This document shows positions 2,975 to 31,933 of a stretch of 32,000 nucleotides of DNA, piece by piece. The notes under the pieces are model-generated. The model saw only the letters and a program-made list of their open reading frames with translations. It searched no databases and was not told the origin of the DNA. A program made the translations under genes and the position numbers. The stretch comes from an archaeon GW2011_AR10 (GTDB taxonomy: Archaea; Iainarchaeota; Iainarchaeia; Iainarchaeales; GW2011-AR10): the NCBI GenBank assembly GCA_000830275.1, contig CP010424.1, positions 630,001 through 662,000 on the forward strand. Direction: 5' to 3'. How positions within the stretch are numbered: the stretch's first letter is position 1; the number at the start of each line of letters is the position of its first letter.

Positions 2975-3083
2975 AGTAGTACCCCCAATCAAAATTTTTT
3001 TTAGAACCCGCCATGTTCTACATCTGAAAGCGATATCAAGGCAAGAATTAATAAGCAGTTTGCACTTTTTTTTATTGGATTTT

Positions 3084-3830: not shown

Positions 3831-3840
3831 GCGGGAAAGC

Positions 3841-4716: not shown

Positions 4717-4722
4717 AAAACC

Positions 4723-4732
4723 TTTATAAATA
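4723..4732 (+). promoter_or_regulatory. TATA-box-like element TTTATAAATA
   Basis: Its 5' end lies 30 nt upstream of ATG 4753. This fits an archaeal leaderless or short-leader transcript. Confidence 0.4.
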
Positions 4733-4752
4733 ACTTGAATCCTAATTGTAGT

Positions 4753-5571: not shown

Positions 5572-5612
5572 TGAAAACTAAAAGCAGGTTTTTCCTGAAA
5601 AAAACTGGAAAA
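5572..5612. terminator. Convergent intergenic region with oligo-T tracts on both strands
   Basis: T5 on the + strand (5589-5593) follows the stop of 4753..5571. A7 at 5598-5604 is T7 on the - strand, following the stop of the giant gene. Archaeal termination commonly uses oligo-T. Confidence 0.4.
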
Positions 5613-15344: not shown

Positions 15345-15346
15345 TG

Positions 15347-15892
15347 TCAAACCCTCTTGTAAACGCAAATCCTTGGCTGCGGGGAGAACAAGTGGAACTG
15401 CTTGATTAAAGTGTACTGGCCGGGCTCAATTGCTTCGTCTTTCTTCCATTCCTTTACTTTAAATTCTGTTGGCTGGTCGTCAAAGTCGTGGCAGACTGTT
15501 GCGGAAGGAAAATCCGTTGCAGAAGAAATGTTAAGACACTTTATTGAACTGAAGTCAGGCGAGGAAAACAAAAGCAGAGTGCATTCATAGCGCAACCCGC
15601 CACAATGAAAAGAGCAAGTGGCCCGGTCATCCCTGCTGACAATCCTCAGCGAGCTATCATTCTGGTTAAAGCAGGACGGCATATCGTATGCAACAGTTTT
15701 TTTGCCTTCGCCTTTTGCAACTGTTTCAAGCGCAGTCTTCAATTCCTCCATGTTCTGGTCAATTTTGCCTTCACACTGCGCTCTCAGCAAAGTGCTCATT
15801 GCATTGAGCCCTACAACTATCACAAAAGTCATTGTTATTACTGCAATCAGCAGCTCGAAAGGGGCTGCTTCCTGGCCTTTCTGGCTGAGCAT
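15347..15892 (-). CDS. Pilin-like protein with an archaeal class III signal peptide
   Basis: From ATG 15892: MLSQKG/QEAAPFELLIAVITMTFVIVVGL. A TATA-like element TTTATATA (complement of 15917-15924) lies about 28 nt upstream. The ORF-track start at 15943 adds a spurious-looking extension. The mature part is Cys-rich. Confidence 0.75.
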   Translation of the reverse strand: MLSQKGQEAAPFELLIAVITMTFVIVVGLNAMSTLLRAQCEGKIDQNMEELKTALETVAKGEGKKTVAYDMPSCFNQNDSSLRIVSRDDRATCSFHCGGLRYECTLLLFSSPDFSSIKCLNISSATDFPSATVCHDFDDQPTEFKVKEWKKDEAIEPGQYTLIKQFHLFSPQPRICVYKRV

Positions 15893-16001
15893 GGTAACAA
15901 GAATACTGTAAAGAGATATATAAAGATTCTCAGAATCAATCAACAGGTATTGAGGGCAAGCATTATGAGCTGTTTGTGTTACTGTAAAAAAACGCAGTGT
16001 T

Positions 16002-16169
16002 TTACTTATTGAAATACTTGGCCTGCTGCCTGCTCCAAACCTTATTCGGAGTTTTTTTCAGCCATTCAGCGTACATGTCGATAAATTCCATGCGCTGCTG
16101 CCTGTTTCTCCTCATTTCCTCTTTAAGCTCTTTCAAATCTTTTTTTGTAAGCTTTAGCCCTTTTCCCAT
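16002..16169 (-). CDS. Small basic protein (55 aa), not in the ORF track
   Basis: Manual translation: MGKGLKLTKKDLKELKEEMRRNRQQRMEFIDMYAEWLKKTPNKVWSRQQAKYFNK*. It fills the gap in the minus-strand operon. The overlapping + strand ORFs 15605..16012 and 15997..16200 have implausible composition. Confidence 0.5.
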   Translation of the reverse strand: MGKGLKLTKKDLKELKEEMRRNRQQRMEFIDMYAEWLKKTPNKVWSRQQAKYFNK

Positions 16170-16328
16170 AAAATTTTCTCCGCCTGCTTTTCAACCCTGA
16201 AATTTTGAAAGCTCTCTTTCAAAAACAATCCTGTTTCCCTTGAATTCCAGTTCCATAAATTAATCTGCCAACAAACTTAATTTAACCATTCTCAAGCAAA
16301 AAAAGTATCCAAGTATTTGAAGTAGTAG

Positions 16329-16487
16329 TCAGTTTATGAGCGGCTGCCTTTTAACTATTTCCTGGCTCTTCTTGAACATTGGCTTAATCAAAGCAATCAG
16401 CAAAAGCGCTGCAATAATAAAAATAATGATTAGGTAAATTGAGCTCCATTCACCCTGCGCCCTTTCACCTAATTCAGGAAATCCCAT
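16329..16487 (-). CDS. Small (52 aa) pilin-like / Flp-like protein, not in the ORF track
   Basis: Manual translation: MGFPELGERA/QGEWSSIYLIIIFIIAALLLIALIKPMFKKSQEIVKRQPLIN*. It has the same [K/R]-[G/A]-Q plus hydrophobic-helix pattern as the neighbouring pilin-like genes. Confidence 0.5.
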   Translation of the reverse strand: MGFPELGERAQGEWSSIYLIIIFIIAALLLIALIKPMFKKSQEIVKRQPLIN

Positions 16488-16533
16488 ATAGAAAAAGAAT
16501 GGAAAAAGAAGTATTTAATGATTGGTGTTAGGT

Positions 16534-17082
16534 TTAACTTGCCGGAATAATGCTTACAAGGCAAATCCTTTCAGTGTTTGAGGGGTCAAATATTGCTGTT
16601 CCACCGCCACAAAAGCTGTTGTAGCCGGAAAACACTGTGTCAAGCCTTGCTTCTAGGACGGTTTCCTCAACCCTGTTCGCGTTATCGCAGAGCACGTATA
16701 GCTTCTGCTGCTGGTCAGAGTTGCCGTTGTAGCGAATCCAAGAGCCTTGAGCAACTTCCTCATAGTTAGGGTTGCTTCCTGAAACAGTGTCAGAAATTAA
16801 AACGCAAAGCTGGTGCTCTCCAAGCGAACCAGTTTTTTCTGCAATTGTCCTTGACCTCAGGCTTGTGCCGTTCTTGAATGTTACTAATCCTGTTCTTTCA
16901 GGCGTGCCCAAATTGTTGATGAGTGTCTTAATTTTTGAGGACGCTTCCTCTGTGGGGTCGCCTTGGCTTGGGGGCGCAATCTGCGTTAAAATCTGCAGCA
17001 GAATTGTGAGAATGAATACTGCAACAATTGCTGCAATCAACAGCTTGAAAACGCTGAAAGCCTGCCCTCTCTCATTCAACAT
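16534..17082 (-). CDS. Pilin-like protein with an archaeal class III signal peptide
   Basis: N-terminus MLNERG/QAFSVFKLLIAAIVAVFILTILLQIL. TATA-like TTTAAATA (complement of 17112-17119) is centred about 33 nt upstream of the ATG. It is a paralog of 17148..17612 (shared ..KGT..A.[KR]TG..Q.CV.I.. block). Confidence 0.8.
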   Translation of the reverse strand: MLNERGQAFSVFKLLIAAIVAVFILTILLQILTQIAPPSQGDPTEEASSKIKTLINNLGTPERTGLVTFKNGTSLRSRTIAEKTGSLGEHQLCVLISDTVSGSNPNYEEVAQGSWIRYNGNSDQQQKLYVLCDNANRVEETVLEARLDTVFSGYNSFCGGGTAIFDPSNTERICLVSIIPAS

Positions 17083-17147
17083 AGCAATCGTAAATAGAAA
17101 CTCTTAACCCATATTTAAAGGTTTTGCTTTAATTCGGCTATAAACAG

Positions 17148-17612
17148 CTAAGGCGTAATTGGTTTAGAGAAAGAGAACTTGCAGCAGATTTCGCAGGTTG
17201 AATCGCAAAAGGAGGCAGGGTCAAGGTTTGTTGTGCACTGCGCGTAAAAGTTTGTTTCAATGCGGTAATTTACCAGTATTCTTTGCGAGTCAACAGTGAA
17301 AGAGGAACTGCTTGGAGCAAGAATTTCAACGCATTGCCCCTCTAATCCTGTTCTTCTTGCAAGAAAATCTTTAGTATAAACTGTGCCTTTGTCGAAGAGG
17401 AGGTTTTCAACAACAAGAATGTCATTGTTTGGCTGCTGCACCGCGTTCTCTAATCCTTCAAGAAAACGCTCTTTGCTCACGTTTATTTTGAACTCCTCAA
17501 AGGAACGGATTGCACCGAGAATTATTAATAAAATCAGCAGCGCAACTATTGCGCCAATCATCATCTTGAACGGCTCAAACTGCCCTTTCTCCATACTAAA
17601 AACATCTCCCAA
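17148..17612 (-). CDS. Pilin-like protein with an archaeal class III signal peptide
   Basis: N-terminus ..MEKG/QFEPFKMMIGAIVALLILLIILGAI. The start is either TTG 17612 or ATG 17594. The C-terminus is Cys-rich. Confidence 0.8.
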   Translation of the reverse strand: MGDVFSMEKGQFEPFKMMIGAIVALLILLIILGAIRSFEEFKINVSKERFLEGLENAVQQPNNDILVVENLLFDKGTVYTKDFLARRTGLEGQCVEILAPSSSSFTVDSQRILVNYRIETNFYAQCTTNLDPASFCDSTCEICCKFSFSKPITP

Positions 17613-17633
17613 TTTTTTTTAGTGTAAAAAACA

Positions 17634-19991
17634 TTAAGCCAAAAATCCGCCGACGAGAATGTTGGAAATAATTATGCTTAAAACGAAAATTATAACTGAA
17701 ATTGGGAAAAAGCGCGCAATGTTTATTCTCACCAGCAAATCGTTGTCCTCCTCTATTTTGGTGGTGAAGTAAGTCATTATGAGGAGAAGCTCCACAACGT
17801 AGATTGCAACGATGATTACGAACTGCGTTGGAGTAGCCATTCCAGCAACTGCTGCCGGGTCAATGAAGCTTCCAACGTTTATGCCAGAAAACGTGTTTGG
17901 AATGCCTGCTCCTCCTGGAACATCAAGGTTGCTCAGATCAAGTTCCGTTGCAATATTGGAAGAAGCGATGGAGGAAAGGGTTATTATTACGATTTTCTGC
18001 AGGCTTGTTGTAATGCCCAAAACCATCGGCGCAATGAATAGGCTCATTGTCTTCATCATTCCTGTTACATCAGAAACCAAAATCTTCAAATTGTTTGCAA
18101 CCTTTTCCGCGTTGTCGAGCTGGATGCTTAACGCAATCATTGTCCTGGCAGCAACGTTCACCCCCAATTGCACTGAATCAACAAGCAGCCTCACTGAACC
18201 GCTAATCAACGAGCTTGGAATGTTTTTCAATGAACCATAGTTTGGGTCAAAGAATGCCTGCTCTAATGGCATTGCAAGCAAGGCAATGTTGTCAAGCGTT
18301 TTCGAGAAAATCCTTTTCGATATTTTGAACTGTGGCAAAAAATCCATTGTGTGCTTTAATGCTTCCTCCACCGGCTTGTTTTCACCCATGCGGGAAGCAA
18401 GAATGTAGATTGAGTCCTTGAACTCTGACTCCATTTCAACAATTTCAAGCTGGGCTTTCCGCTTGTAAATGTTGTTGTAGTAGAGGTAAACAAACACTGA
18501 AAGTGAAACGGTTATGAGCAGGCCGAAAATGAAATTGTAGGGAGTAATATCGTTGGCCGGCTTCGTGAAAAATGCCTGTTCCTCGCTTTTCACGCGTTTC
18601 TCTGCTTCCTCAACAGGAAAACCCTGCGCAATCAGCTCATTGTAAAGCACTCCTGTGGGAATGTCAAAGTATTTCAATTGGTAGCCTGCTTTTGAAAGAA
18701 CTTCAGTCCTTTGCTTGTCTAATGCAAGCAGCTGCGGCGTGCCTTCCTCAAGGCCCAAAGCATCGTAAAGAATTTTTGGCGGAACTCCTTGCTGTGAAAC
18801 AAAAAAGGAAATTGAGCTTCCTGCAATCAACACAACAACAACCACGAAGAAAATGCTCACAAAGCCGTTGCCTAACCTCATTGTGCCCTTCGGCGGCAAA
18901 CCCGGAAAGTTGTCCTTTATTTCAGGCGCAACATACGTTGGTGGGCGCTTGCTTATAACGGAGAAAGCAAACCAAAGCGTAACCAAAGGAATTATTATGT
19001 TGTAAATGGCAAACAAAACAATTGGGTTTGCAAGCGGTGCGCCGCTGAAAGAGCTCCCTACAGGAAGAATGATTATCAGAATCAATGGAAGCAGCACCCC
19101 AACATAGAAGAGAATCATTGTTGGCTGGTTGAGGTCGCGAGCATACTGCTCCATTTTGTTTTTTATTGACTCAAGTATTTCATCCATTGTTTGGTCAAGC
19201 AAAGCAAAACGCTTTGCTTCAGTTGTTTCAATCACTGAAGCGCGGATTCGCATCAACGCTTTCTTGAATTCATCGCTGAATGCACCCCAGCGGTAAGCCA
19301 GTGCATCGCTTGCTTCTGCAACAGACGAGTAAACTCCCAACTGGACATCCCACAAAAGTTTTTTGAAGTCTTCAGCAATTTTGCCCCTGCCGTGCTCTGC
19401 TGCAAACTCAATGCTTTTCTCCAGGTTCGGGCTTAACTTCATTGACATAACCATGTAGCCGAGGATTTCAGGAACATAAGTCAAAGCACGCACCTGCTCT
19501 GCTCTTGCCTCCTCCAAGGGATAGTTTTGAACATAATATGTTGCAAAAACCACCATGCCAAGCAATGGGAGGAGAATGTAGATTGGCGTAAGAAAGGTTG
19601 CCCCGCCAACGAATAGGTTTACAACCACTATTGCAGGGGACAGGAAAATAATTCCTGCAATTACTATTGCAGCAAGAAAGCTCACAATCAGCACGAACTT
19701 GTACGCTGCACCAAGCTCTTCCCCATTTAGCTCCCAACCCAGAAACTCCACTGCCTTCTTGTTCTGCTCTGAAAGCGCTTCACCTTTTCCTAGTGAAGGA
19801 GCCATTGCGTGAATGCGCTTGCAGAACCTAACAAAAGGGTGCTGTTTTCTCCTTACAAGCGTTCTTTCCTCATTCTTGAACTCGTCCTTGACCACGGCTA
19901 TTTCCCTGTAAAGCTCTCCAATAGAGCTTGGCCCATCAAACAGCTTCTCTTCTTCTTCCTGCTCTCTTTCTTCCCTGTCTTTTCTCGCCAT
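17634..19991 (-). CDS. FlaJ/TadC/PilC-like polytopic platform protein (785 aa, two T2SSF-like domains)
   Basis: Many TM helices. Two soluble T2SSF-like segments are present: ..LTYVPEILGYMVMSMKLSPNLEKSIEFAAEHGRGKIAEDFKKLLWDV.. and ..FKDSIYILASRMGENKPVEEALKHTMDFLP... It sits directly downstream of the ATPase. Confidence 0.85.
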   Translation of the reverse strand: MARKDREEREQEEEEKLFDGPSSIGELYREIAVVKDEFKNEERTLVRRKQHPFVRFCKRIHAMAPSLGKGEALSEQNKKAVEFLGWELNGEELGAAYKFVLIVSFLAAIVIAGIIFLSPAIVVVNLFVGGATFLTPIYILLPLLGMVVFATYYVQNYPLEEARAEQVRALTYVPEILGYMVMSMKLSPNLEKSIEFAAEHGRGKIAEDFKKLLWDVQLGVYSSVAEASDALAYRWGAFSDEFKKALMRIRASVIETTEAKRFALLDQTMDEILESIKNKMEQYARDLNQPTMILFYVGVLLPLILIIILPVGSSFSGAPLANPIVLFAIYNIIIPLVTLWFAFSVISKRPPTYVAPEIKDNFPGLPPKGTMRLGNGFVSIFFVVVVVLIAGSSISFFVSQQGVPPKILYDALGLEEGTPQLLALDKQRTEVLSKAGYQLKYFDIPTGVLYNELIAQGFPVEEAEKRVKSEEQAFFTKPANDITPYNFIFGLLITVSLSVFVYLYYNNIYKRKAQLEIVEMESEFKDSIYILASRMGENKPVEEALKHTMDFLPQFKISKRIFSKTLDNIALLAMPLEQAFFDPNYGSLKNIPSSLISGSVRLLVDSVQLGVNVAARTMIALSIQLDNAEKVANNLKILVSDVTGMMKTMSLFIAPMVLGITTSLQKIVIITLSSIASSNIATELDLSNLDVPGGAGIPNTFSGINVGSFIDPAAVAGMATPTQFVIIVAIYVVELLLIMTYFTTKIEEDNDLLVRINIARFFPISVIIFVLSIIISNILVGGFLA

Positions 19992-20005
19992 AAAATGGTT
20001 TCACT

Positions 20006-22285
20006 TCAAGACTTTGTTTTGGCAATTATTCCCTTAATTAAGTGGTTTTTTACCCAGTTCTTCCACTCGCCCAGAACCTCTTCGTAGTCAACGGAACCGT
20101 GTTCTTCAAGCTGGTCCTCCTTCAATAGCATGAGCTTGTTGTTTGCAAGAACCGCGTTTTCTGCTTCAAGCAGAGAAGGAATTGAATTCTTGTTCTTCAT
20201 TTCCACCAAAAACTCTTTTGCCGAGCCATTCATTCTTATGCTCCTCCAGATTTCTTCAAGGTTGAGGCCGCTCATCTTGCTTATCTTTGAGAACATCTCG
20301 CTTTCCTTAAGGTTGTCTTCAAGCAGTTCAAGCTCGTCTTTTTTTGCGTCATAACTCATTAGGTCCAGCAAACCGCCCTCTCTTTCAGGATCCTCAATCC
20401 AGTGCTTTTTCACCTCTGTTATCTGGACAATTCTCCTGTTCCTCTGCAGTGACCCGGAAAACCTTATCGGCCTTGCAACCACGACAACATCAGTTGCCTT
20501 AAACGAAGTGTTTGGAACATCCAAGTCATTCACTACCCTATCCCACACAGAGTAAGCGCTTTCACCGTGGATTGTTCCCATCACAATGTTTCCCGCAGCA
20601 CCAATTCTCATTGCCTCGTACAGAACCCTTGCTTCCTTGCTCCTCACTTCACCTATGATTAGGGCAGAATCTCCCAAACGAAGCGCTGTCCTCAAAGCTT
20701 CCTCTGGCGCAACCTCAGAGGAAGTGCCGCCAGCAGCAATAGGTGAACGCGTTTTAAGCCTCTGGATGTTGAAGCCTATGTTCTTCATGTAAGGAACTGG
20801 AAGTTCCAAGGTGTCTTCCTGCACAATTATTCTCGTGCTCTGGATAATTTCAAGGATTAGTGCCTGCATCAAAGAAGTTTTTCCGCTGCCCCTTGAACCA
20901 GTAACCAGCATTGTTGCCTGTGCGTCAACGAAAAAAGAAAGCAGGCCTGCTGAAAGAGGAGTTAAAAATTTCACGTCAACAAACTGGGGCAGCGTCCAAG
21001 GAGTAACCTTATGCAGCCTGAAAGCAAACGCGATTCCGCTCGGCGCAAGCGGCGGGCCAATGACTGCAACCCTTGTCTCCATGTCAGGCAAATCAAAGTC
21101 CAGGACTGGATGAGCTTCATCAAATGGCCTGCCTGACATTGCACGCATTTTTGATACAAGCGAACTTGCCTCTCCTTCAGTGTAAAGAATGTTGGTTTCG
21201 CACTGGCCAAAGTCAGAGTGAATAACGTAAAGCGGCTTCTGCCCGATGGGAGAATCAATGAAAATGTCTGTGAGGTTCCTGTCAGAGAGCAGCAGTTCAA
21301 GGATTCCGTAGCCGACAGTGTACCTTGCAACAATCTGGCTTAACTCAATTATTTCATCGTTGCCAAGAGAAATATTGTTCTCTTTCGCGATGTCCTTGAT
21401 TGTTGACTGGTAAACGCGCTCAAAGTACTTCCTGCTTTTCGCAAGCTCGCTTAAAGAGGTTTTTCCAGGCCTGTACGATGCAACGATTTCCCTTGTCTTG
21501 CTCAAAATGAAGTACTTGTCCGGGGGCAGGGAATACTCTGGGGGATTGACAATGTAAAGCTTCTGCGGCTTGTTCGGGTGCTTGAATATCTGCACTGTTG
21601 TATCCTTCACTTGGTATTCGTCCAGAAGCTCCAGCTTTTCCTCTTCTTCAAACAGCAGCCTTGAACCGATAAAGGAGGGTTTTACCTGCGCTTCAAAGAA
21701 CGGCTTGTACATTTCTTTTGTGTCAGGAACTGTTTTCAGCTTCAAAAGAATCTGTTTGGCTTTCTGGACAAGCATTGTGCTGTCAAGGTTCTTCTTTATG
21801 TAAAGCAGGGTGCGAAGGTAAACATCAGAGTAATGCTCTTTGTCCTCAGAGCTAAAGCGCTCCCTTTCCTTGCTGATGGCGCGGAGCAGTTCAAGGTAAG
21901 AATAAATCGGGTCAAACAACAGGGTATCGTGAGTGATTTTAACAATAGTGTTGTGCCTTTCACCGAAGTCTTTTTCGCCCTCAATTTTTGCATCCCCTAA
22001 AAACTTGTAGCTCCACACGCTTTCAATCTCTAATTTTTGCGCAACCCTCGAAATTTCCTCCAGAAGCTTTTTCTGCTCCTCGCTGTAAACCCTTTCGTAC
22101 ACTTCAGCCAAAACAATGTCGTCAACTTCCACTTCTTGAAGCAGGCTGAAGACATGGTACCTGCATGCAGGGTCATCAGCGATTGAGGAACTATAAACGC
22201 AGTCGCGACAGTCAAAAATCAGGTGCCTCTTGTTGCCTTCCTCTTTAACCGCCCAAGGGCCTACTTCAAAACCGCCGATTTTCAA
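20006..22285 (-). CDS. Type IV pilus/archaellum-family assembly ATPase (FlaI/PilB-like, 759 aa) with a long N-terminal extension
   Basis: Walker A GSRGSGKTS, Asp box RIIVQEDTLE, Walker B ALIIGEVRSKE, His box GTIHGES. TTG start preceded by AGGTGA with a 6-nt spacer. N-terminal Cys cluster FDCRDCVYSSSIADDPACRYH. Confidence 0.9.
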   Translation of the reverse strand: MKIGGFEVGPWAVKEEGNKRHLIFDCRDCVYSSSIADDPACRYHVFSLLQEVEVDDIVLAEVYERVYSEEQKKLLEEISRVAQKLEIESVWSYKFLGDAKIEGEKDFGERHNTIVKITHDTLLFDPIYSYLELLRAISKERERFSSEDKEHYSDVYLRTLLYIKKNLDSTMLVQKAKQILLKLKTVPDTKEMYKPFFEAQVKPSFIGSRLLFEEEEKLELLDEYQVKDTTVQIFKHPNKPQKLYIVNPPEYSLPPDKYFILSKTREIVASYRPGKTSLSELAKSRKYFERVYQSTIKDIAKENNISLGNDEIIELSQIVARYTVGYGILELLLSDRNLTDIFIDSPIGQKPLYVIHSDFGQCETNILYTEGEASSLVSKMRAMSGRPFDEAHPVLDFDLPDMETRVAVIGPPLAPSGIAFAFRLHKVTPWTLPQFVDVKFLTPLSAGLLSFFVDAQATMLVTGSRGSGKTSLMQALILEIIQSTRIIVQEDTLELPVPYMKNIGFNIQRLKTRSPIAAGGTSSEVAPEEALRTALRLGDSALIIGEVRSKEARVLYEAMRIGAAGNIVMGTIHGESAYSVWDRVVNDLDVPNTSFKATDVVVVARPIRFSGSLQRNRRIVQITEVKKHWIEDPEREGGLLDLMSYDAKKDELELLEDNLKESEMFSKISKMSGLNLEEIWRSIRMNGSAKEFLVEMKNKNSIPSLLEAENAVLANNKLMLLKEDQLEEHGSVDYEEVLGEWKNWVKNHLIKGIIAKTKS

Positions 22286-23809: not shown

Positions 23810-24367
23810 ATGCACAAAAAATTTGAATTTCTGAGTAAAACTTTTTCAGAGAAAGAAATACTTAAAGCAGGAAAGTTTCTTTTGGGCTTAGCTGCATACT
23901 TCATTGCGCTGAGCTTTCTTGTTTCACTGGTGCCGCTGGAATTGGTTGAATTCTTTTTTGCATCAGTTTCACTTTTCTTTCTTGGGTTTTTTGGCTTTTC
24001 GGGAGAACTGGTTTTCACGGAACCAGTTATCATGCAATTGCAGGGCTTGGAGCAAGGAATTGCAATAACCTATCTTTGCACTGGCCTGCTGGAACTGGTG
24101 CTGCTTGTTTCAGCTGTTGCCTCCTCGTTCGGCATTGAATGGAAAAAAAGAATTATTGGAGTTATTGCTGGCGCAATTGCATTGGTTGCGTTCAACGTTT
24201 TCAGGATAGTTTCAAGCATTCTGATTATTCTTTGGTTTGGTTTGGAGGCAGGTGGCTTTTCGCATGACCTGTTGTTCAGGGTTTTTTTGTTTGCAACCGT
24301 TGCCGGCTACTATTTTGTGTGGTTTAACTGGGCCACAAGACTAAAAAAACTGAATTCCACCTTATAG
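23810..24367 (+). CDS. Minimal exosortase/archaeosortase-family protein (185 aa)
   Basis: A multi-TM protein carrying the family's three signature positions in the expected order and spacing: Cys90 in ITYLCTGLLEL (C-[ST]-G), Arg132 in AFNVFRIV (N-x-x-R), and His152 in GGFSHDLLF. Confidence 0.75.
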   Translation: MHKKFEFLSKTFSEKEILKAGKFLLGLAAYFIALSFLVSLVPLELVEFFFASVSLFFLGFFGFSGELVFTEPVIMQLQGLEQGIAITYLCTGLLELVLLVSAVASSFGIEWKKRIIGVIAGAIALVAFNVFRIVSSILIILWFGLEAGGFSHDLLFRVFLFATVAGYYFVWFNWATRLKKLNSTL

Positions 24368-24730
24368 CATTATAGTGTTTTCTCCTTCAAAGTGTTTGTC
24401 CCCAGTAACAATCGGCAGATTGTACTGCTTTGCTGTTGCAAGAATGATTGCATCAATTAAACCAAAATCCTTGAAGTTTTTTCTTTTTTCTATTTTTAAT
24501 ATACCTGATGTTTCCAATTGTTCTTGGTTGACTTCGATAATTGTAGACAGGTTTTTAACAATGTGAAAAATTTTTTGCCGGTTAAGTTTGCTTTTTTCAA
24601 CCCACTCGCTCAGCTCTGCAATAGAAATAGCACTTGTGAAACACTGGTTATTAGCAATAACTTCTTTTACTTTTAGGCCCCTGCTAGTACCATTAAATAA
24701 TTCAATCCAAGCATATGTATCCAAAAGCAC
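24362..24730 (-). CDS. vapC: PIN-domain toxin (VapC-like)
   Basis: GTG start abutting the antitoxin stop. N-terminal LLDTYAWIE (first acidic residue). ..GLIDAIILATAKQYNLPIVTGDKHF.. is typical of a PIN C-terminus. Confidence 0.8.
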   Translation of the reverse strand: MLLDTYAWIELFNGTSRGLKVKEVIANNQCFTSAISIAELSEWVEKSKLNRQKIFHIVKNLSTIIEVNQEQLETSGILKIEKRKNFKDFGLIDAIILATAKQYNLPIVTGDKHFEGENTIML

Positions 24731-24949
24731 TTAAAACACTCTGTCTTTGTGGTCTCGCCTAAAGGGTTTTGCATTTTTTACAGAACCAAATGCTTTTTCA
24801 AGTAAAGAGATGTCTTTTTTAATAACAGCCAACTGTATTTTCTCCCCCTCGCCGATTTTTTCCTGTTTTACTACCTCCTTTGGAATCAGAGCACCCCAAG
24901 AACTCCCAACCTTTCTAAGCTTGGTTTCAAAAACCTGCACAAAAATCAC
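24731..24949 (-). CDS. vapB: AbrB/SpoVT-type antitoxin (VapB-like)
   Basis: ..TKLRKVGSSWGALIPKEVVKQEKIGEGEKIQLAV.. is a swapped-hairpin AbrB-like motif. The gene sits immediately upstream of the PIN gene. Confidence 0.7.
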   Translation of the reverse strand: MIFVQVFETKLRKVGSSWGALIPKEVVKQEKIGEGEKIQLAVIKKDISLLEKAFGSVKNAKPFRRDHKDRVF

Positions 24950-24967: not shown

Positions 24968-25131
24968 CAAAATATTTAAACTTATTCTTGGCCGGAACTG
25001 CATTGTTTCTGCCAAAAAAAACATTCATCTGGGCGACAAGAATCTGAAGCCGTTTTGCATAAGAAGCACCTTAAAACCTGAAAGCAGTAAATATATATTG
25101 CTGAAGATAATTAATACAAAGAGAGAAGCAG

Positions 25132-25716
25132 GTGAATTTGTTGGAGAAGCGCTATAGAAACCTCGCCCTGTTAGTGGTTGCAGTAATAGTTTTAGCTTTG
25201 GCTTGGCTTCTTTTTTCCTCTGTTTCCTTTGAGTCAAAGCTCTCGGAAATTGATGCAGTGTGGAAAGAAAACGGCCTTAGCGTGGCTGGTTTTCCTTACC
25301 GAAATTCACAGGAATTTGACGCGCTCAGCCTGCAGGAAATTGAGTCACTGAAGGAAAGGCTTGGCAGGGTTGAGCCGGCAAGAATTGAATCAGTTGAACA
25401 GTTTGTGGCATTAAACAAAAAGCTGTTGGCTCTTGCAACCGCTAGGAAACTTTTGGAGGAAAAAGTTCTTGCAATCGAATCAACAGCAGGCATATGCAGT
25501 GAACTCAGCCTTCTTGATGAACTGCTAGAAGCCCAAAGGGAAGTGAACGAAAAATCAAAATCGTTTGTTGGAAGCTACAATTTGTTCGTTGAGTCTTTTC
25601 CTAGGGAAGCCGAGACAGCATCGCTTCCACAAATTGAGGACAACGGCCTTGAACTGGAGTTCCTGCTCGCGCAACAGGAGGAAAATGCTGCAGCAGTCAG
25701 GGGTGAGTGCGCTTGA
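25132..25716 (+). CDS. N-terminally anchored ~195-aa two-Cys protein (paralog of 29884..30477)
   Basis: TM anchor LALLVVAVIVLALAWLLF. Blocks shared with the paralog: LSLQEIESLKERL vs LSSAELAELKVEL; an internal Cys (GICSEL vs DYCSNI); SFVGSY vs SFVGKY; and a C-terminal G-x-C (GECA* vs GAC*). Confidence 0.75.
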   Translation: MNLLEKRYRNLALLVVAVIVLALAWLLFSSVSFESKLSEIDAVWKENGLSVAGFPYRNSQEFDALSLQEIESLKERLGRVEPARIESVEQFVALNKKLLALATARKLLEEKVLAIESTAGICSELSLLDELLEAQREVNEKSKSFVGSYNLFVESFPREAETASLPQIEDNGLELEFLLAQQEENAAAVRGECA

Positions 25717-28700
25717 AGAAAAAACCTTTATTCTTGCTTTTGCTGCTTGCACTGCTTTTAACTGCCGCTAACGCAGAAGCACAAATTGCTGCCTCTGAGT
25801 GGAATGAAGGCGTTATTGCAACCAGCTTCAGCTGCAGGAAAAGCAACTGCGTTGCATTGCCCTCTCGTTTGGCTTTAGGCAAGAGAGTTGAGGTGTGCTC
25901 TTCCAAAGGATGCGTGACCGCGGTTGTAGCAGATGTTGGGCCTTGGTGCAGGCAGGATGACCCCTACGTGCTTGGCAACAGCAGGCCTTTTGCTGAGCAG
26001 CGTGCAGGAGAAAACCTTGATGATGCATTAAAATTTCCTGAAGCAGGAGAGGACACCTTGGACTGCAGAACTAACCCGAAAGTTGGAGGGCCTATTCCAA
26101 GGAAAAGCAACGGCGCAGGCATTGACTTATCGGTTGATGTTGACAGGGAACTAGGCAACAACGGAAAAGGAATTGTGAGCTGGAGGTTCATTGATGATCC
26201 AACCAATTCGCTGTTGAAATTGATTGACACTGCAAGAAAATCCCAGCAGGAGTCAATTCCAAATATTTTTTCGGCTTCAATTAGTTCAGGCGCTCCGCTT
26301 GACTTCTTCAGGGGCAAAACAGTTCTTATTGATGTAGGGCACGGTGGAAGGGATCCCGGCGCAGTTTTCACCACCAAAAACGGGCAGACAGTGAACGAGA
26401 AGGACATGGCACTCTCGTATTCAAATAAACTCAAAGAAGTGCTTGAATCAAACGGGGCGAGGGTTTTGATGACAAGGGAAACCGATGTTTACCTTTCCTT
26501 GAGCGAAAGGGTTGACATCATTAACAGGGAAAAACCTGATGTTGCAATTTCAATGCACATTAACTCTGCAAGGCTGCCTGTTTTCAGGGGCACACCACTG
26601 GTTTTCGTGGCATGCCTTTTCAGGGAGGAGGGCAAAAACGGCAACGGCTTGGTTGACATAGCAGAATTTGCCTCATTTAACCAGTTGTGCCAGCCTAACC
26701 CTGCTGAAAGCCACCAAGGCAGCGTAATAGTGGCATCGAACGTTACAAACAAGTTAAGCGGGTTTCTTACCGGAATGCGCGTAGCTGATGCAACTGTTCT
26801 GGTTAGGTCAAATTCTCCTGTTGTGTTGTTTGAGGTTGGCTTTGGCTCGAACAAGGATGAACTTGAAAGAATGCTGACTCCATTGCACCAGACAACCATA
26901 ACTCTTGGCTTGGCAGCAGCAATACAGGATTACCTTGGAAAAACGAAAAAGGCAGCAGTAACTGGAACCGAGCTGAAGGAAATTGAGCTGGAGGAAGAAC
27001 TGGATTATGTTGTGCTGAACTTTGGTGACCTAAGCGAACTCGAAAGGAGGGGGGTGCCAAACCCAATCACTTCAATTGCAAGCGGCACAAAATTCTACAA
27101 GAACGGGAACGAAGTGGATGCGTTCGCAACTTCGATTGTTCCTGATTCGGCTGGCAGCGAAAACAAGCTGGCAGTGTACAGGCTGCAACAGTACTCATCA
27201 TACAATTTTGAGGTGAAGCTCACAGGCTACTTTGACAACAAGGTGATTGGCACAGGAAGCTTTGGGCCTATTCCTGGAAAGGCAAAGCCGGAGCTAAACG
27301 CAAATGTAAAGTGGAATTTTGCAGGGGAAGCAGCAGGCAATGTTGCTCCAACCGCTGTTGCAAATGACATAAATGCAGTGAAAGGAAAAGCGGTTTTGCT
27401 TGACGCTTCAAGGTCTTTTGACTCCGATGGAACAATTGAAGGTTACTTGTGGCTTGATTCAAGTCACCCGGATGAAAGCCCTGCAAATGGGAAAAGAGTT
27501 GCAGAGGCAACTGTTTCAGCTGTGTTTAACACTTTGGGAGAGCACCTTGTAATTCTTTACGTAACAGATGACAAGGGGGCAACCGGCTCGGAAACTTTTT
27601 ACGTGAATGTAGCCAAGGAACAAGAAGGCATAGTGGAAGAAGGAGCTCCGAGGATTGAGAGACTTGTGCTGAATTATGAGTATTCTTTACGAATCAGATA
27701 CAACGAGGACGGCACTATCAGGGAAACAGATGTTATTTCCCTGCAGCTCGGAAAAAACCAATTAATCTCTGCCGCGTTTTATTCCCCTGTTGAGTTTTAT
27801 CGCGCGCAACTTGAGCTCTGGGCATTCCAGGAGGGAATTACTCCAAGCGCGGCAAGCATTGAGAGGAGAATGATAATTGCGGCTGATGAACGAGGCACTA
27901 ATGCTCATGAGGCAGGCACTGACATATTGGTGCCAATTGATGAGGGAAAAATTGTCAGCCTAGACGAAATAGATTACGGAAAAATTGGGACAGGGCAGTG
28001 GAACAGTTCAGTGAAAGAGTTCGTGCAAAAATTCAAGGACAACCAGTATTATTTTAGGGTTGAAACAAGGATTGAAAAGGAAAGCAATGGTAAAAAGGTT
28101 GGCTCACAATTCGTGCCGGTAAGCATATCCTTGTTTGAGGAGCTTCCGCGCATTGAGAGCTGCAGTTCCATTAGGGAGTGCCTTGCCCGCGGCAGCCAGA
28201 TTGTTTCCAACAGTCTTTTGAGGGCAGGCGAACAGGCAGAAGATTTTGAGGGCTTGAAGTGCGTGCAATTAGAGGAAGGAAAGCAGCTGGATGTTGTCAG
28301 TGCTCCATGCATTTCAGCTGAAAGGATTGATGAAATCCTTGCAGCAAACGATTCTCCGGCAGCTGGAACAGGAAAGGCATTCTATGATTACGGTTTAAAG
28401 TACGGCATTGACCCAACAGTTGCCTTGGCTTTCTTTAGGGAAGAGTCAACTTTCGGAAAGTTTGGGGCAGCAAACAGGACAAAATCAATCGGCAACATCA
28501 GGTATTACGATACTGCTGACCCAAATGATGCTGCTTACTGCCCAACGCAGAGAAATGACAATGGATTCTGCTCTTATGACAGCTGGGAGCAAGGCATCGA
28601 GCACTTCTACAAGTACATTAATGGCCCGCTTTACGTTGCAGCAGGCAACAATACTCTGGAGGAAATAGTGCCAATTTACATTTCCGCTTCTTCAACTGAA

Positions 28701-28757
28701 ACAAGCAGCATCATCAGCAAAATGAGAAGCTGGTTGGCTGAGTGGAGGGAACAGTAG
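25707..28757 (+). CDS. Secreted multi-domain peptidoglycan hydrolase: DPBB/RlpA-like, N-acetylmuramoyl-L-alanine amidase (Amidase_3), PKD-like, and a C-terminal glucosaminidase/lysozyme-like domain
   Basis: Signal peptide KKKPLFLLLLLALLLTAANAEA. DPBB-like: LPSRLALGKRVEVCSSKGCVTAVVADVGPW..GAGIDLSVDV. Amidase_3 hallmarks: LIDVGHGGRDPGAV, NEKD, PDVAISMHINS, VLFEVGFGSN. PKD-like: LLDASRSFDSDGTIEGYLW..ILYVTDDKGATGSETFYVNV. C-terminus: GIDPTVALAFFREESTFGKFG..IGNIRYY..FCSYDSWEQGIEHFYKYI. The start is GTG 25707 or TTG 25713; the latter has GGGGTGA 6 nt upstream. The start overlaps the upstream gene. Confidence 0.85.
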   Translation: MRLKKKPLFLLLLLALLLTAANAEAQIAASEWNEGVIATSFSCRKSNCVALPSRLALGKRVEVCSSKGCVTAVVADVGPWCRQDDPYVLGNSRPFAEQRAGENLDDALKFPEAGEDTLDCRTNPKVGGPIPRKSNGAGIDLSVDVDRELGNNGKGIVSWRFIDDPTNSLLKLIDTARKSQQESIPNIFSASISSGAPLDFFRGKTVLIDVGHGGRDPGAVFTTKNGQTVNEKDMALSYSNKLKEVLESNGARVLMTRETDVYLSLSERVDIINREKPDVAISMHINSARLPVFRGTPLVFVACLFREEGKNGNGLVDIAEFASFNQLCQPNPAESHQGSVIVASNVTNKLSGFLTGMRVADATVLVRSNSPVVLFEVGFGSNKDELERMLTPLHQTTITLGLAAAIQDYLGKTKKAAVTGTELKEIELEEELDYVVLNFGDLSELERRGVPNPITSIASGTKFYKNGNEVDAFATSIVPDSAGSENKLAVYRLQQYSSYNFEVKLTGYFDNKVIGTGSFGPIPGKAKPELNANVKWNFAGEAAGNVAPTAVANDINAVKGKAVLLDASRSFDSDGTIEGYLWLDSSHPDESPANGKRVAEATVSAVFNTLGEHLVILYVTDDKGATGSETFYVNVAKEQEGIVEEGAPRIERLVLNYEYSLRIRYNEDGTIRETDVISLQLGKNQLISAAFYSPVEFYRAQLELWAFQEGITPSAASIERRMIIAADERGTNAHEAGTDILVPIDEGKIVSLDEIDYGKIGTGQWNSSVKEFVQKFKDNQYYFRVETRIEKESNGKKVGSQFVPVSISLFEELPRIESCSSIRECLARGSQIVSNSLLRAGEQAEDFEGLKCVQLEEGKQLDVVSAPCISAERIDEILAANDSPAAGTGKAFYDYGLKYGIDPTVALAFFREESTFGKFGAANRTKSIGNIRYYDTADPNDAAYCPTQRNDNGFCSYDSWEQGIEHFYKYINGPLYVAAGNNTLEEIVPIYISASSTETSSIISKMRSWLAEWREQ

Positions 28758-28817: not shown

Positions 28818-29699
28818 ATGGCAGCAAAGAGGAAAACAGGGAAAGAGAGCTTAGCCAGAATATTGGTTAAAGGAACTGGGAACAGCATTTGGTTCACAGC
28901 AAAGGCTCCGTTCACGGCAGGCTGGTGGGTTTCAAAGAAAGGCGTAAAGGCAACAGGGTGGCTTGCCAAGAAGGGCACAAAAGCAGGAAGTTGGTTGGGA
29001 AAAAAAGGAGTTAAGGCTAGCGCAGTTGCAGGGGCTTGGGCGGGAAAGAAGACAGCGTCGGCTATGAAGAGGCTCATAAAAAGCCCTTACGTTAGGTCTG
29101 CTGGCGCCGGGGTTATTGTTTACCAGTTTCCCAGCACAACCATTAAGCTGATTTTAACTGGAGTAAAATGGAGCGCAATTGGGGCTTACACTTTTCCAGG
29201 CGTGGTGATTCCAGCTGCCCTCGGTGCCGGAACATACCACTACTTTAAGGACGCCAGGAGAAGAAAGGTTATCTGGCAGTTGGTTTCAGCAGGGAAAGAC
29301 CTTGCATGGGAAAGGATTGGCGGCAAGCTGTTCATTAAGGGTGGTGACGGAAAAAATCGTTTCAGGTGGAGCCCAACGGAACTCATAGTGTTGGCTACTG
29401 AAAGGGCAAGGAAAGGGATAGCAGGGAGAAGAGAGACCAGGGAGGCCAGGCAAAGGCTTTTGAAGGCATTGGATGAACCAAGCATGAAAAAATTTGTTTC
29501 TGGAATCAGAAAGGAAATTGAAGCGATTCATAGTAGGGCTGCAAGGAAGGCAAAAGCAGTTAGTGGCCAATCAATAGTTGATGGCGCGGAAGTGCTCAAT
29601 GAAACCAGAAAAATCAAAGCCATCTTTACTGGAAAGTTCGAAAGGAAAACTGGAATAAAGCTGAGTGAAAGGCAGGTTGATGAAATTTTGAGCGGGTGA
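28818..29699 (+). CDS. Hypothetical protein with N-terminal Trp/Lys 11-aa tandem repeats, a central hydrophobic segment and a basic C-terminal domain
   Basis: Repeats: WVSKKGVKATG / WLAKKGTKAGS / WLGKKGVKASAVAGA / WAGKKTASAMK (nt 28926-29069). Hydrophobic region ..AGAGVIVYQF..GVVIPAALGAGTYHYF. No signal peptide. Confidence 0.7.
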   Translation: MAAKRKTGKESLARILVKGTGNSIWFTAKAPFTAGWWVSKKGVKATGWLAKKGTKAGSWLGKKGVKASAVAGAWAGKKTASAMKRLIKSPYVRSAGAGVIVYQFPSTTIKLILTGVKWSAIGAYTFPGVVIPAALGAGTYHYFKDARRRKVIWQLVSAGKDLAWERIGGKLFIKGGDGKNRFRWSPTELIVLATERARKGIAGRRETREARQRLLKALDEPSMKKFVSGIRKEIEAIHSRAARKAKAVSGQSIVDGAEVLNETRKIKAIFTGKFERKTGIKLSERQVDEILSG

Positions 29700-29883: not shown

Positions 29884-30477
29884 TTGGATAAGAGATGGAA
29901 AAACCTGTTGCTCTTGGGGGTTTTAATTCTGGTTGTTGCAGCTGCGGCATTTATTATTCTTCAGCCAGGACCTGGAAGGGCAAAGACGTTTGGAGAGGGG
30001 TTTGAGGAAATGAAAGCATTTTTTGCAGGAAAAGGAATTGATGCCGGGGCGTTAGACATTGAGGACTTGGCTGCTCTGTCTTCGGCTGAACTTGCAGAGC
30101 TAAAAGTTGAGTTGCAGTCTTTTGCAAGTTCGTTTAATGGGCCTGGCTCTGCAAAAGAGCTTGCGGGAGTTTATGTTTCAGCAATTGATTTGGGGGCCAA
30201 GTCAAAAGCGCAGGGCAAAAAAACCAACCAAATTGATGCCCTCAGCCTGCAGGACTACTGTTCAAACATTGTGCTGTTCAAGGAAAGGGATTCACTGGAG
30301 GAGGAAAAAATTGGTTTGCTGGAGCAATTGAAAACAAATATTAATTCTTTTGTTGGAAAGTACTCAAATGAGGCACAGCAGATAGGGCTTAAACCGCTTG
30401 AAGTGGACATTGAAGCGCTGCGCTCTGCAAATGGTGAGAGAGCAACGGTAACAGCGCAGCTAGAGGGAGCATGCTGA
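29884..30477 (+). CDS. N-terminally anchored ~195-aa two-Cys protein (paralog of 25132..25716)
   Basis: TTG start with AAGGTGG 4 nt upstream. TM anchor LLLLGVLILVVAAAAFIIL. The blocks shared with 25132..25716 are listed under that feature. Confidence 0.75.
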   Translation: MDKRWKNLLLLGVLILVVAAAAFIILQPGPGRAKTFGEGFEEMKAFFAGKGIDAGALDIEDLAALSSAELAELKVELQSFASSFNGPGSAKELAGVYVSAIDLGAKSKAQGKKTNQIDALSLQDYCSNIVLFKERDSLEEEKIGLLEQLKTNINSFVGKYSNEAQQIGLKPLEVDIEALRSANGERATVTAQLEGAC

Positions 30478-30487
30478 GTGATTTGAA

Positions 30488-31933
30488 ATGAACAGAAAAG
30501 TTTTTGCGCTTGCAGCGTTCTTGTTTTTTGCTGTTCTGGTTTTACCAAGTGCATTCGCGCTTCAGAGCTGCGCTTTTGCTTATGACTTGGGCGTTAACGG
30601 GCAGTTTAATCTGCCGAATTACTGCGGAATGAACCTCAATCAGAAAATTGAGTTCAAATACCCTGTTCCGGAAAGGAACTATTCGGTTACTGTCTTCTCG
30701 TTGAGGTTGATTAGATTCAATCAGAATAAGGCAGGAACATATTTACCATTTAACGATGACAGCTGGTCGTTCCTTATTGAAAATGATTTGTTTGGAACAA
30801 GAGGCGAATTTGTTATCAATGAAGACACTACTGATTCCCGAGGAATAGGCAGGGGGATTGGAACAATTTCAATATATGTTGACTCACAGTCAGCTGATTT
30901 TGCTTCACAGATTGAGAGGTTGACCATTAACTTTGACAGCAGGCAAATATACGAGCAGTTGAACAAACGCGTGGCAGAAGGAGAGTCTTCTCTTGGAGAG
31001 TTGGTTGGCTTTGGGGAAAATTTCACCCCTAATTTGCCTGCAACTCAAGGCGGCCAGTGCCAGCCGGCTTACACTGTTCCGAGCAGCGGAAAATTCAGGC
31101 TGCCACAGCCTTGCACAGCGGTTCCCGGCCAGCAAATTTCTTTCATGTTCAGGCAGACAGAGTTAAGTTCTCCTGTTGAATTGTTTGTTTTAAGGTATGA
31201 AAACATAAGGCCAGATTCTTTGGATTATTGGTATGACAATGATTTGCTTGAGTTCTCTGTGATTGACAGGCTCACAGGCCAAAGAAATGTTTTGAACGCG
31301 GAGGAAAATCAGGGTGGCTCTTCTAAAGTGGGAAATTATGCTGGGGTTTTCCTTAATGCAGACACCATTACTGAGGCAGGCTCGATTAAGGTGAAGAACC
31401 TTAACATTGAAATTTACCCACAAGAACTCAGCGGACTGACATCAGAGTTTCCTGGTTTGCTTGAACAGGTTAGCTCCAATAAAGTTGATGAAAAAACCAA
31501 AGCAGCAATTAATGCAAAGTTTGCAAACGATGAGGCAGCAGATGATTCAGAGGGAATTGCCGTTGCCGTGAAGGATTCAACATCAAAAACCTCAGGAGAT
31601 GCCTGGGCTTCATCTCCTCCAAAAAAAGGAACTTATGTTTGGGCTTGGCAGCTTGAAGGCGCGACAATTCAGCAGCTTAATGATAACAAGGAAAAAGTTA
31701 CAATAAAGCAGGAAGTCGGCAGCGAGTTTGTTGAAACCAGTGTTCCAATAAATGTTTCATCCTCGTTCAAAGACACAGAAGGAAACGATGTCGTGGGGGC
31801 ATTTTACCTGGTGGAATTCAGGGACGCGGGAAAATACAGGGTTTTGGTTGAAGGGCAGGTTGTGAAAAACTTGCTGGTGTTCGTGAAAAGCGGCAATACG
31901 GGGTATGAGATAATAAAGCTCACGGGGCAGTGA
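30488..31933 (+). CDS. Secreted protein with an internally duplicated N-terminal domain
   Basis: Signal peptide MNRKVFALAAFLFFAVLVLPSAFA. Two homologous modules begin CAFAYDLGVNGQFNLPNYCGMNLNQKIEFKY and CQPAYTVPSSGKFRLPQPCTAVPGQQISFMF. Starts 10 nt after the paralog gene. Confidence 0.75.
   Translation: MNRKVFALAAFLFFAVLVLPSAFALQSCAFAYDLGVNGQFNLPNYCGMNLNQKIEFKYPVPERNYSVTVFSLRLIRFNQNKAGTYLPFNDDSWSFLIENDLFGTRGEFVINEDTTDSRGIGRGIGTISIYVDSQSADFASQIERLTINFDSRQIYEQLNKRVAEGESSLGELVGFGENFTPNLPATQGGQCQPAYTVPSSGKFRLPQPCTAVPGQQISFMFRQTELSSPVELFVLRYENIRPDSLDYWYDNDLLEFSVIDRLTGQRNVLNAEENQGGSSKVGNYAGVFLNADTITEAGSIKVKNLNIEIYPQELSGLTSEFPGLLEQVSSNKVDEKTKAAINAKFANDEAADDSEGIAVAVKDSTSKTSGDAWASSPPKKGTYVWAWQLEGATIQQLNDNKEKVTIKQEVGSEFVETSVPINVSSSFKDTEGNDVVGAFYLVEFRDAGKYRVLVEGQVVKNLLVFVKSGNTGYEIIKLTGQ

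Follow-up and report, generated by a model that had tools for sequence, protein, structure and literature searches.

A predicted secreted, multi-domain murein hydrolase in the genome of the DPANN archaeon GW2011_AR10

The hydrolase gene and its domains

The stretch of DNA analysed here, referred to as the window, comprises 32,000 nucleotides (nt) of contig CP010424.1 (positions 630,001 to 662,000) of archaeon GW2011_AR10, and the gene under study is an open reading frame (ORF) at 25707..28757 on the plus strand which is predicted to encode a secreted multi-domain murein hydrolase (AJF60229.1, QT03_C0001G0734). In the ORF listing of the window it starts with GTG and yields 1016 amino acids (aa); public gene callers start two codons downstream at a TTG (25713), which is preceded by GGGGTGA, giving a product of 1014 aa (P0001). 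The database record is labelled 'hypothetical protein', and near-identical copies have been automatically annotated as N-acetylmuramoyl-L-alanine amidase. Residues 1-25 (25707..25781, plus strand, as for all features of the gene) make up a Sec-type signal peptide, MRLKKKPLFLLLLLALLLTAANAEA followed by Q, with predicted cleavage after ANAEA, which was read directly from the sequence. The sole hydrophobic 19-mer of the protein is found at residues 3-21, and a hydrophobicity scan of the whole 1016-aa protein returned no second membrane segment. The protein is acidic, with a net charge of -31, and contains 14 cysteines. Its sequence fits a protein that would be exported via Sec and released without a membrane anchor.

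The clearest of the domains is Amidase_3, at residues 206-407 (26322..26927), which matches PF01520 with E=8e-34 and 117.6 bits against a cutoff of 27 and covers profile positions 1-173 of 174. Comparison with the solved amidases AmiB of Bartonella (3ne8), CwlV (1jwq), CwlD (7rag) and 4rn7 showed that GHGG (H212), NEKD (E231), SMH (H284) and LFEVG (E376) align with the corresponding motifs; from family knowledge we take H212, E231 and H284 to be the Zn ligands and E376 the catalytic residue. All four are invariant across the members of the cluster of near-identical proteins described below, and the domain is at most ~30-33% identical to any bacterial sequence found. A PKD/Ig-like module follows at residues 545-635 (27339..27611), with matches to PKD_4 (E=4e-8) and K319L-like PKD (E=1.6e-7) whose scores of 33.6 and 31.7 bits (PF18911/PF22352) both exceed the cutoff of 27; the same region also aligns with the PKD domains of collagenases.

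At the C-terminus, residues 852-1016 (28260..28757) form a GH73-type N-acetylglucosaminidase-like domain with the putative catalytic residue E913 in the motif ALAFFREES. The match to PF01832 spans just profile positions 2-81 of 123. A search with residues 811-1016 recovered 14 homologues of 34-49% identity, with E-values down to 5.5e-35, and PF01832 is precomputed in all but one of them (13/14). The core of the alignment, ALAFFxxES...GNI...Y..W..G, is invariant, as is E913 in the 15 sequences. AlphaFold2 (AF2) models were built per domain, and the one covering this domain, which also took in residues 638-851, has a predicted local distance difference test score (pLDDT) of 84-97 over residues ~852-1016. 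Fold matches in the PDB at ranks 1-16 were all GH73 enzymes, among them LytB (7e-5), AtlE, Ecd09610, Acp, Atl, Auto and SagB. In profile-to-PDB alignments E913 of 'FFREES' falls on the Glu of 'ALES' in LytB and of 'LLET' in Atl, which we take to be the general acids of GH73. The domain is classed as a divergent GH73-type glucosaminidase, despite a Pfam score under the cutoff, because of its PF01832-bearing homologues, the invariant alignment core, the AF2 model and the GH73 fold matches. An SLT_4 match in the hydrolase was only marginal, with E=0.1 and a score of 12.6 bits where 27 is the cutoff. Residues ~925-1005 (window ~28479-28721; GNIR...Y..W..G...YAP...ND..YI) also match a phage protein of 1295 aa, 'Gp29' (PDB 9vvp, E=9e-4), at its N-terminus, a similarity which suggests that the C-terminal half of the GH73 domain may be a sub-module also used in large phage structural proteins.

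The N-terminal residues 26-165 (25782..26201) were recognised from AF2, Foldseek and relatives as an RlpA/expansin-like double-psi beta-barrel (DPBB). The AF2 model of this domain (pLDDT 74, predicted template modelling score 0.66) includes a low-confidence insert of ~25 residues. Foldseek comparison of the model with the PDB returned domain D1 of expansins (2bh0 with E=3.8e-4, 3d30, 4jcw and 9ms4/5), designed DPBB proteins and other domains of the DPBB fold; comparison with the viral models of BFVD returned phage 'rare lipoprotein A-like' proteins, 3D-domain proteins and one 'lytic transglycosylase'. The pattern VALPSR...DVGPW...NGAGIDL is common to the domain and six small unannotated proteins, and its motifs resemble DrGP...iDLS. 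D76 (in DVGPW), D84 and D140 (in NGAGIDL), considered as candidate counterparts of the catalytic Asp of RlpA and MltA, vary little or not at all among family members. An exhaustive profile search recovered 1,285 cluster representatives at E<=1e-3, 471 of them at E<=1e-10. Five of 45 members of the family reach Pfam DPBB_1 (best E=2.3e-6), no match to the N-terminal domain was found in PHROGs, and a profile of the 45 sequences found nothing among PDB sequences. Judged from these searches, the module sits in a sequence family effectively uncovered by Pfam.

The remaining two segments lie on either side of the PKD module. Residues 413-543 (segment L1; 26943..27335) have no family match in Pfam, and a homology search with them returned only the hydrolase itself; residues 638-851 (27618..28259) have no match in Pfam or PHROGs, and their AF2 pLDDT is below 50.

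The initial annotation, made without database searches, had proposed much of this architecture. Its 1016-aa ORF with a Sec-type signal agrees with the exact coordinates 25707..28757 (plus strand) and the single N-terminal hydrophobic segment; the Amidase_3 domain that it described as complete scores above the Pfam cutoff, with the four named motifs landing on the Zn ligands and the catalytic Glu, and the PKD-like Ig module is likewise recovered above cutoff, at residues 545-635. The DPBB/RlpA-like region proves correct at the level of fold and superfamily, through AF2, Foldseek and those relatives that match DPBB_1. The C-terminal glucosaminidase misses the strict Pfam cutoff and is backed by its homologues, its fold and the catalytic Glu.

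Distribution and relatives

Full-length homologues were searched for in a word-indexed protein database and in GTDB species genomes, and none was found beyond a species-level cluster of 12 proteins. Ten of them were compared with the hydrolase, to which they show 98.5% identity or more; several assemblies are represented, among them contigs of 248-250 kb. Residues D76, D84, D140, H212, E231, H284, E376 and E913 are kept in all full-length copies. A tblastn search of the hydrolase against 78 Iainarchaeota and other DPANN loci returned nothing; the 3-kb flanks of these loci stop short of the syntenic position.

Relatives of single modules are spread more widely. The closest relatives of the DPBB are found in metagenome-assembled genomes (MAGs) labelled '[archaeon]', such as P0063 (MEK6957696.1, '[archaeon]'), whose DPBB is 47% identical to that of the hydrolase. 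Elsewhere in the family the module is fused to Amidase_3 (P0093, P0121, P0156 and P0167), to Peptidase_M23 (P0121 and P0128), to NlpC/P60 (P0121), to GH3 (P0156) and to RHS repeats (P0086). Of these P0156 (MCR4335220.1), recorded as 'N-acetylmuramoyl-L-alanine amidase [archaeon]', combines GH3, Amidase_3 and a DPBB-like domain. The module also occurs alone, as the 116-aa protein P0033, whose gene is flanked on phage contigs (L080:4841-5191; also L081 and L082) by the large terminase gene and the portal gene and was seen on at least 24 contigs.

All three catalytic-type modules of the hydrolase recur in OIO26686.1 (P0121; 935 aa, partial) of Candidatus Micrarchaeota archaeon CG1_02_55_22. This DPANN protein shares with the hydrolase a GH73-like domain (38% identity), Amidase_3 and a DPBB-like domain (34% identity); it differs in domain order, in the addition of Peptidase_M23 and NlpC/P60, which brings it to five wall-degrading modules, and in the lack of a PKD module.

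For the GH73 module the nearest relative found was P0035/P0199, with 43-44% identity, and its genomic context was read from P0199, a cluster member of P0035. This 214-aa protein (L083:8001-8645, on a 38.9-kb contig of 30% G+C content) directly follows a T2SSE ATPase (3759-5939) and a platform-like protein (5941-8001), in the slot of the pilin within a type IV pilus operon. Its N-terminus, MKGQFNSLIFILLGLVLLLGML, carries a class III pilin-type signal (MKGQFNSLIFILLG...) of the same kind as the pilins of the window. The ATPase of this contig is 38% identical to the ATPase of the window and 50-54% identical to those of loci labelled Woesearchaeota or 'archaeon', and the platform-like protein is 29-33% identical to its counterpart in the window. 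P0199, on a Woesearchaeota-like contig, may be a pilus-associated murein hydrolase, to judge from its domain and gene order. Other members of the GH73 subfamily are membrane-anchored and found in apparently bacterial contexts; at one such locus (L084) the neighbours encode a thiolase, a methylmalonyl-CoA mutase and ClpB.

Host and genomic context

Ten proteins of the window match QT03_C0001G0715-0737 of archaeon GW2011_AR10 exactly. We take this archaeon to be the member of Diapherotrites whose closed genome was obtained from the Rifle aquifer (Castelle et al., 2015), a site with which the ENA record prefix ANAN16 and the sample SAMN03203005 agree. The FlaI-like ATPase at 20006..22285 (minus strand) has full-length relatives of 60-76% identity in dozens of Candidatus Iainarchaeum/Diapherotrites genomes, with identity dropping to ~50% in Micrarchaeota and ~38% in Woesearchaeota, and the gene order ATPase, platform, pilin and sortase is kept in Iainarchaeota loci. 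Two FlaI/FlaJ-type systems, a PAC2/TIGR00161 protein and a protein of the exosortase/archaeosortase family are encoded in the window, and six of its proteins carry class III signals in which (K/R)G is followed by Q. The archaeal origin that had been read from the neighbouring genes is thus upheld by the exact matches to GW2011_AR10, the Iainarchaeota-like ATPase, FlaI/FlaJ, PAC2 and the class III pilins. A bacterial contig was also considered, and the relatives of the ATPase together with the GW2011_AR10 protein matches rule it out. ATPases of the Iainarchaeota type, 68-72% identical to that of the window, were also found on contigs L009, L012, L047, L066 and L076, which are labelled Chloroflexota, Spirochaetia or Thaumarchaeota and are probably binning contamination in those MAGs. 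The G+C content around the hydrolase gene is 0.46, compared with 0.42-0.47 elsewhere in the window. Family scans of the window proteins found no phage genes, and no tRNA genes or Rfam families were found in the window.

The stop codon of orf25132 (25132..25716, plus strand) overlaps the start of the hydrolase gene. It encodes an acidic protein of 194 aa, similar to AJF60228.1, which has one N-terminal transmembrane (TM) segment (residues 7-25) and no Pfam match, and which is conserved alongside the hydrolase in the same assemblies. A TATA-like element, TAAATATATATT, lies at 25088..25099 (plus strand), 33-44 nt upstream of the start of orf25132, and represents by motif match a candidate promoter; a motif scan found none upstream of the hydrolase's own start. 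Because of the overlap and of the TATA-like element before orf25132 only, the two genes are probably a co-transcribed two-gene unit. The hydrolase had been placed in a cassette next to pili, a description which the gene order in this genome does not support: the pilus operon (13370-22285) is 3.4 kb away, five genes of mixed orientation lie between them (orf22541, a sortase-like gene, a 72-aa ORF, a PIN gene and orf25132), and the hydrolase appears to belong to its own unit with orf25132. The PIN-domain gene (24362-24730, minus strand) is preceded by the 72-aa ORF (~24731-24949, minus strand), and both lie directly upstream of the orf25132-hydrolase unit and diverge from it; by domain and arrangement they resemble a toxin-antitoxin pair of the VapBC type.

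Immediately after the hydrolase gene, 28818-29699 (plus strand) encodes an extremely basic 293-aa protein of net charge +41 with no Cys, no hydrophobic segment and no family match, preceded by a TATA-like element at -38. It is followed at 29884-31933 (plus strand) by genes for a small anchored protein (197 aa) and a signal-peptide protein (481 aa), a pair which mirrors the layout of orf25132 and the hydrolase; similarity between orf25132 and the 197-aa product of orf29884 was undetectable, so the two are not detectable paralogues. At the other end of the window, 30-2517 and 3060-3830 (both plus strand) carry a second FlaI-type ATPase, clipped by the window edge, then two half-size FlaJ/UpsF-like membrane proteins, then PAC2; this system is distinct from the pilus operon at 13370-22285. 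The minus strand at 5613-10442 encodes a secreted, very acidic protein of 1609 aa with 20 Cys, which starts with a signal peptide, ends in a TM anchor (…LPSLPENPVVLALFIVSLIAVFVYIRREKN) and has no Pfam match. A role as S-layer protein or adhesin is conceivable, and the small protein of the exosortase/archaeosortase family encoded nearby (23810-24367, plus strand) may use it as a substrate. Between this gene and the pilus operon, 11200-13363 (plus strand) encodes two Lys/Glu-rich low-complexity proteins, the second ending in a double zinc ribbon, and shows a strong AT skew (0.32-0.35) unlike the remainder of the window.

Discussion

Taken together, the domain content and the host make it likely that this gene of the DPANN archaeon GW2011_AR10 encodes an extracellular, multi-catalytic murein hydrolase acting on bacterial walls. 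The murein-cleaving families act on bacterial murein, and archaea build none. The initial annotation had concluded that the enzyme must act on the wall of another organism, which is reasonable for a protein that carries an export signal, comes from an archaeal host and retains intact catalytic residues in two domains of murein-cleaving families.

The analysis establishes which domains are present, that their catalytic residues are conserved, that there is a signal for export and that the host is archaeal; for the substrate, the order of action, any catalysis by the DPBB and the biological purpose, we infer the following scheme. The protein would be exported through Sec and released, and would then act on bacterial cell walls. 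The Zn-dependent Amidase_3 would cut the bond between N-acetylmuramic acid (MurNAc) and L-Ala and so strip the stem peptides, and the GH73-type domain would cut the beta-1,4 glycan bonds between N-acetylglucosamine (GlcNAc) and MurNAc. On the peptide-free glycan the RlpA-like DPBB would then act, either by lytic transglycosylase cleavage or by an expansin-like grip. The PKD module and residues 413-543 and 638-851 might serve as spacers or as extra binding parts in place of canonical wall-binding domains. The outcome would be a local breach of the wall or full solubilisation of the murein, and the purpose would be either the killing or opening of bacteria or a supply of amino sugars and peptides; killing, host-cell opening or necromass scavenging could each be served. 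In bacterial cell separation the catalytic DPBB of RlpA requires denuded glycan, which is the product of amidases (PMC6895207).

Several observations weigh against this reading. Iainarchaeota have been reported as possibly free-living (PMC10936187), so that no bacterial partner is known. The PF01832 score of the C-terminal domain stays below the cutoff of 30.2 bits, at 24.1 bits for the whole protein and 27.9 bits for the domain alone, and the 783-aa fragment P0260, from one strain variant, carries E912N/E913Q (window 28443-28448), the second of which replaces the putative GH73 catalytic acid. Eight of the 12 differences in P0260 fall in the GH73-like domain, and this variant makes it less certain that GH73 catalysis is needed in every case. 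The N-terminal domain has no Pfam match even at E<=10, and DPBB_1 (PF03330) in particular is not reached; its TM-scores in Foldseek are only ~0.4, in part because of the disordered insert and a trailing helix, and expansins, its best structural matches, are non-hydrolytic binders. Between H284 and E376 the Amidase_3 domain has ~30 residues more than CwlV, at the site of the regulatory helix of AmiB, where the insert of AmiB is ~13 residues longer still; with an insert at this autoinhibitory-helix site, the amidase may need an activator. About one third of the hydrolase falls in segments without a family match, and no Pfam match to LysM, SPOR, SH3, PG_binding or CW_binding was found in it.

The explanation which competes best with three cleavage activities is that the protein has one or two, with the DPBB (and possibly, in some strains, the GH73-like domain) serving as a glycan-binding or targeting module in the place of LysM, SPOR or SH3, and the amidase, with or without GH73, doing the cutting. 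This we regard as a real, if minority, possibility. The best PDB fold matches of the DPBB are to D1 of expansins, the module is found elsewhere C-terminal to catalytic domains, which is the usual place of wall-binding domains, the hydrolase has no other recognisable wall-binding domain, and E913Q is a natural variant of the GH73-like domain. Set against this, members of the DPBB family match the Pfam DPBB_1 'lytic transglycolase', the viral fold matches are RlpA-like, 3D-domain and 'lytic transglycosylase' proteins, and D76, D84 and D140 are invariant or nearly so. The stand-alone 116-aa phage homologue is easier to understand as an enzyme than as a binder, and this stand-alone form favours, without establishing, a catalytic role for the DPBB. 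The three cleavage specificities that had been claimed for the polypeptide are therefore too many to assert, because the DPBB may be either an RlpA-like catalyst or a non-catalytic binder resembling D1 of expansins.

A substrate other than murein appears improbable; candidates would be the pseudomurein of a host methanogen, the envelope or the N-glycans of GW2011_AR10 itself, or polymers resembling chitin. The Pfam name of GH73 refers to endo-beta-N-acetylglucosaminidase activity on glycoproteins, PKD and expansin-like modules are found in polysaccharide-degrading enzymes, and the known hosts of DPANN archaea are archaea (PMC8204110). Nevertheless, by family knowledge a complete-site Amidase_3 is specific to the MurNAc-L-Ala bond, which is absent from archaeal walls, the partner modules of the DPBB are murein hydrolases (M23, NlpC/P60 and Amidase_3), and the strong fold matches of the C-terminal domain are all bacterial autolysins or endolysins.

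Least probable of all is that the gene is a functionless relic of horizontal transfer, belongs to a prophage, or encodes a phage endolysin on DNA that was misassembled or is a contaminant. In favour of this, endolysins typically contain Amidase_3 and GH73 (with PHROGs endolysin matches), a VapBC-like pair lies just upstream and full-length homologues are confined to one species-level cluster. Against it, the gene lies inside an archaeal contig of 1,241,428 bp and is found again in contigs of 248-250 kb, its G+C content is unremarkable, the lack of phage genes in the window makes a prophage or endolysin origin unlikely, the ORF is intact with catalytic residues kept in all full-length copies, a Sec signal would be needless for the endolysin of an archaeal virus, and two of the modules have their nearest relatives in DPANN archaea other than this one.

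A murein hydrolase acting on bacterial walls therefore stays our preferred reading of the gene. Beyond it, we tentatively put forward a wider and more doubtful proposal, in which several DPANN phyla (Iainarchaeota, Micrarchaeota and a Woesearchaeota-like lineage) would shuffle a shared pool of murein-degrading modules, among them the DPBB family that Pfam leaves uncovered and the divergent GH73 subfamily, at least one lineage having placed a pilin-type GH73 protein in a pilus operon. This would allow contact-dependent, pilus-associated breaching of walls, and would make Iainarchaeota of the AR10 type predators or episymbionts of bacteria. P0199 is the best support for a link to pili, yet it comes from a different genome. 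Predation or scavenging has been proposed for DPANN archaea (PMC9723730, PMC11537232).

The hosts and lifestyles of most DPANN archaea are obscure and Iainarchaeota are often treated as free-living; the hydrolase provides a clonable and testable handle on a possible archaeon-bacterium interaction. The DPBB family, with its ~1,300 cluster representatives in phages and DPANN multi-hydrolases, and the GH73 protein with a pilin signal are leads to new lytic enzymes and to how ultra-small archaea might reach the contents of bacterial cells.

Comparison with known systems

The pairing of a MurNAc-L-Ala amidase with a GH73 glucosaminidase on one polypeptide is shared with the bifunctional Staphylococcus autolysins Atl and AtlE, which were compared together with multi-domain phage endolysins; Atl, AtlE, LytB and SagB are among the best structural matches of the C-terminal domain. 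Atl carries Amidase_2 together with wall-binding repeats, and processing splits it into two enzymes. The hydrolase differs from it in having Amidase_3, an added DPBB, no known binding repeats and a divergent GH73 domain, and in being archaeal. In bacterial cell separation RlpA works after the amidases AmiA/B/C, whose product, denuded glycan, is the substrate that it requires (PMC6895207); in the hydrolase an RlpA-like DPBB and Amidase_3 are fused. Its DPBB, however, belongs to a separate sequence family, lacks SPOR and is of putative catalysis, and would target foreign walls instead of the cell's own division.

Extracellular murein-degrading enzymes have already been published for DPANN and other archaea (PMC12352652, PMC8204110, PMC9723730, PMC10936187), and, as noted, near-identical copies of the hydrolase already bear an automatic amidase annotation; the unusualness claimed for the gene was thus overstated. 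What was not described in the literature searched, which did not extend to the original AR10 paper, is the combination of DPBB, Amidase_3, PKD and GH73 without a wall-binding domain. The same literature did not describe such a hydrolase in Iainarchaeota, module shuffling among DPANN phyla, the DPBB family uncovered by Pfam or a GH73 protein with a pilin signal.

Giant extracellular SLT/GH23 proteins are known from Woesearchaeota and Pacearchaeota (Castelle 2015/2021, PMC8204110; Vigneron 2022, PMC9723730). Like the hydrolase they are large secreted DPANN proteins with predicted murein binding or degradation and a hint of interaction with bacteria; in contrast to these proteins (fam00969) the hydrolase has Amidase_3, GH73 and a DPBB, with SLT only marginal, and belongs to the phylum Iainarchaeota.

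The nearest published set is that of Strock et al. (2025), in which modular peptidoglycan (PG) hydrolases were found in ~5% of archaeal genomes, DPANN Nanoarchaeota being prominent (PMC12352652). Woldo and Danwoldo of Halogranum salarium are examples; action against bacteria was proposed for the set and demonstrated for two proteins, and archaeal PG hydrolases were shown to be able to kill bacteria. The GW2011_AR10 hydrolase resembles this set in being archaeal, in its signal peptide, in its bacterial-type domains (PF01832, and Amidase_3 in some DPANN) and in its patchy spread. It differs in having two or three catalytic-type modules and a Sec instead of a Tat signal, and no Iainarchaeota entry appears in the part of the published hit table that was available. 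That set requires one catalytic domain plus one Pfam wall-binding domain (PMC12352652), and the hydrolase, having no canonical wall-binding domain, falls outside the definition and would be missed by the screen. Since published surveys have required such a domain, the true frequency of murein hydrolases in archaea is probably underestimated. The general phenomenon is already known, and what the GW2011_AR10 hydrolase adds to it is an architecture without a canonical wall-binding domain.

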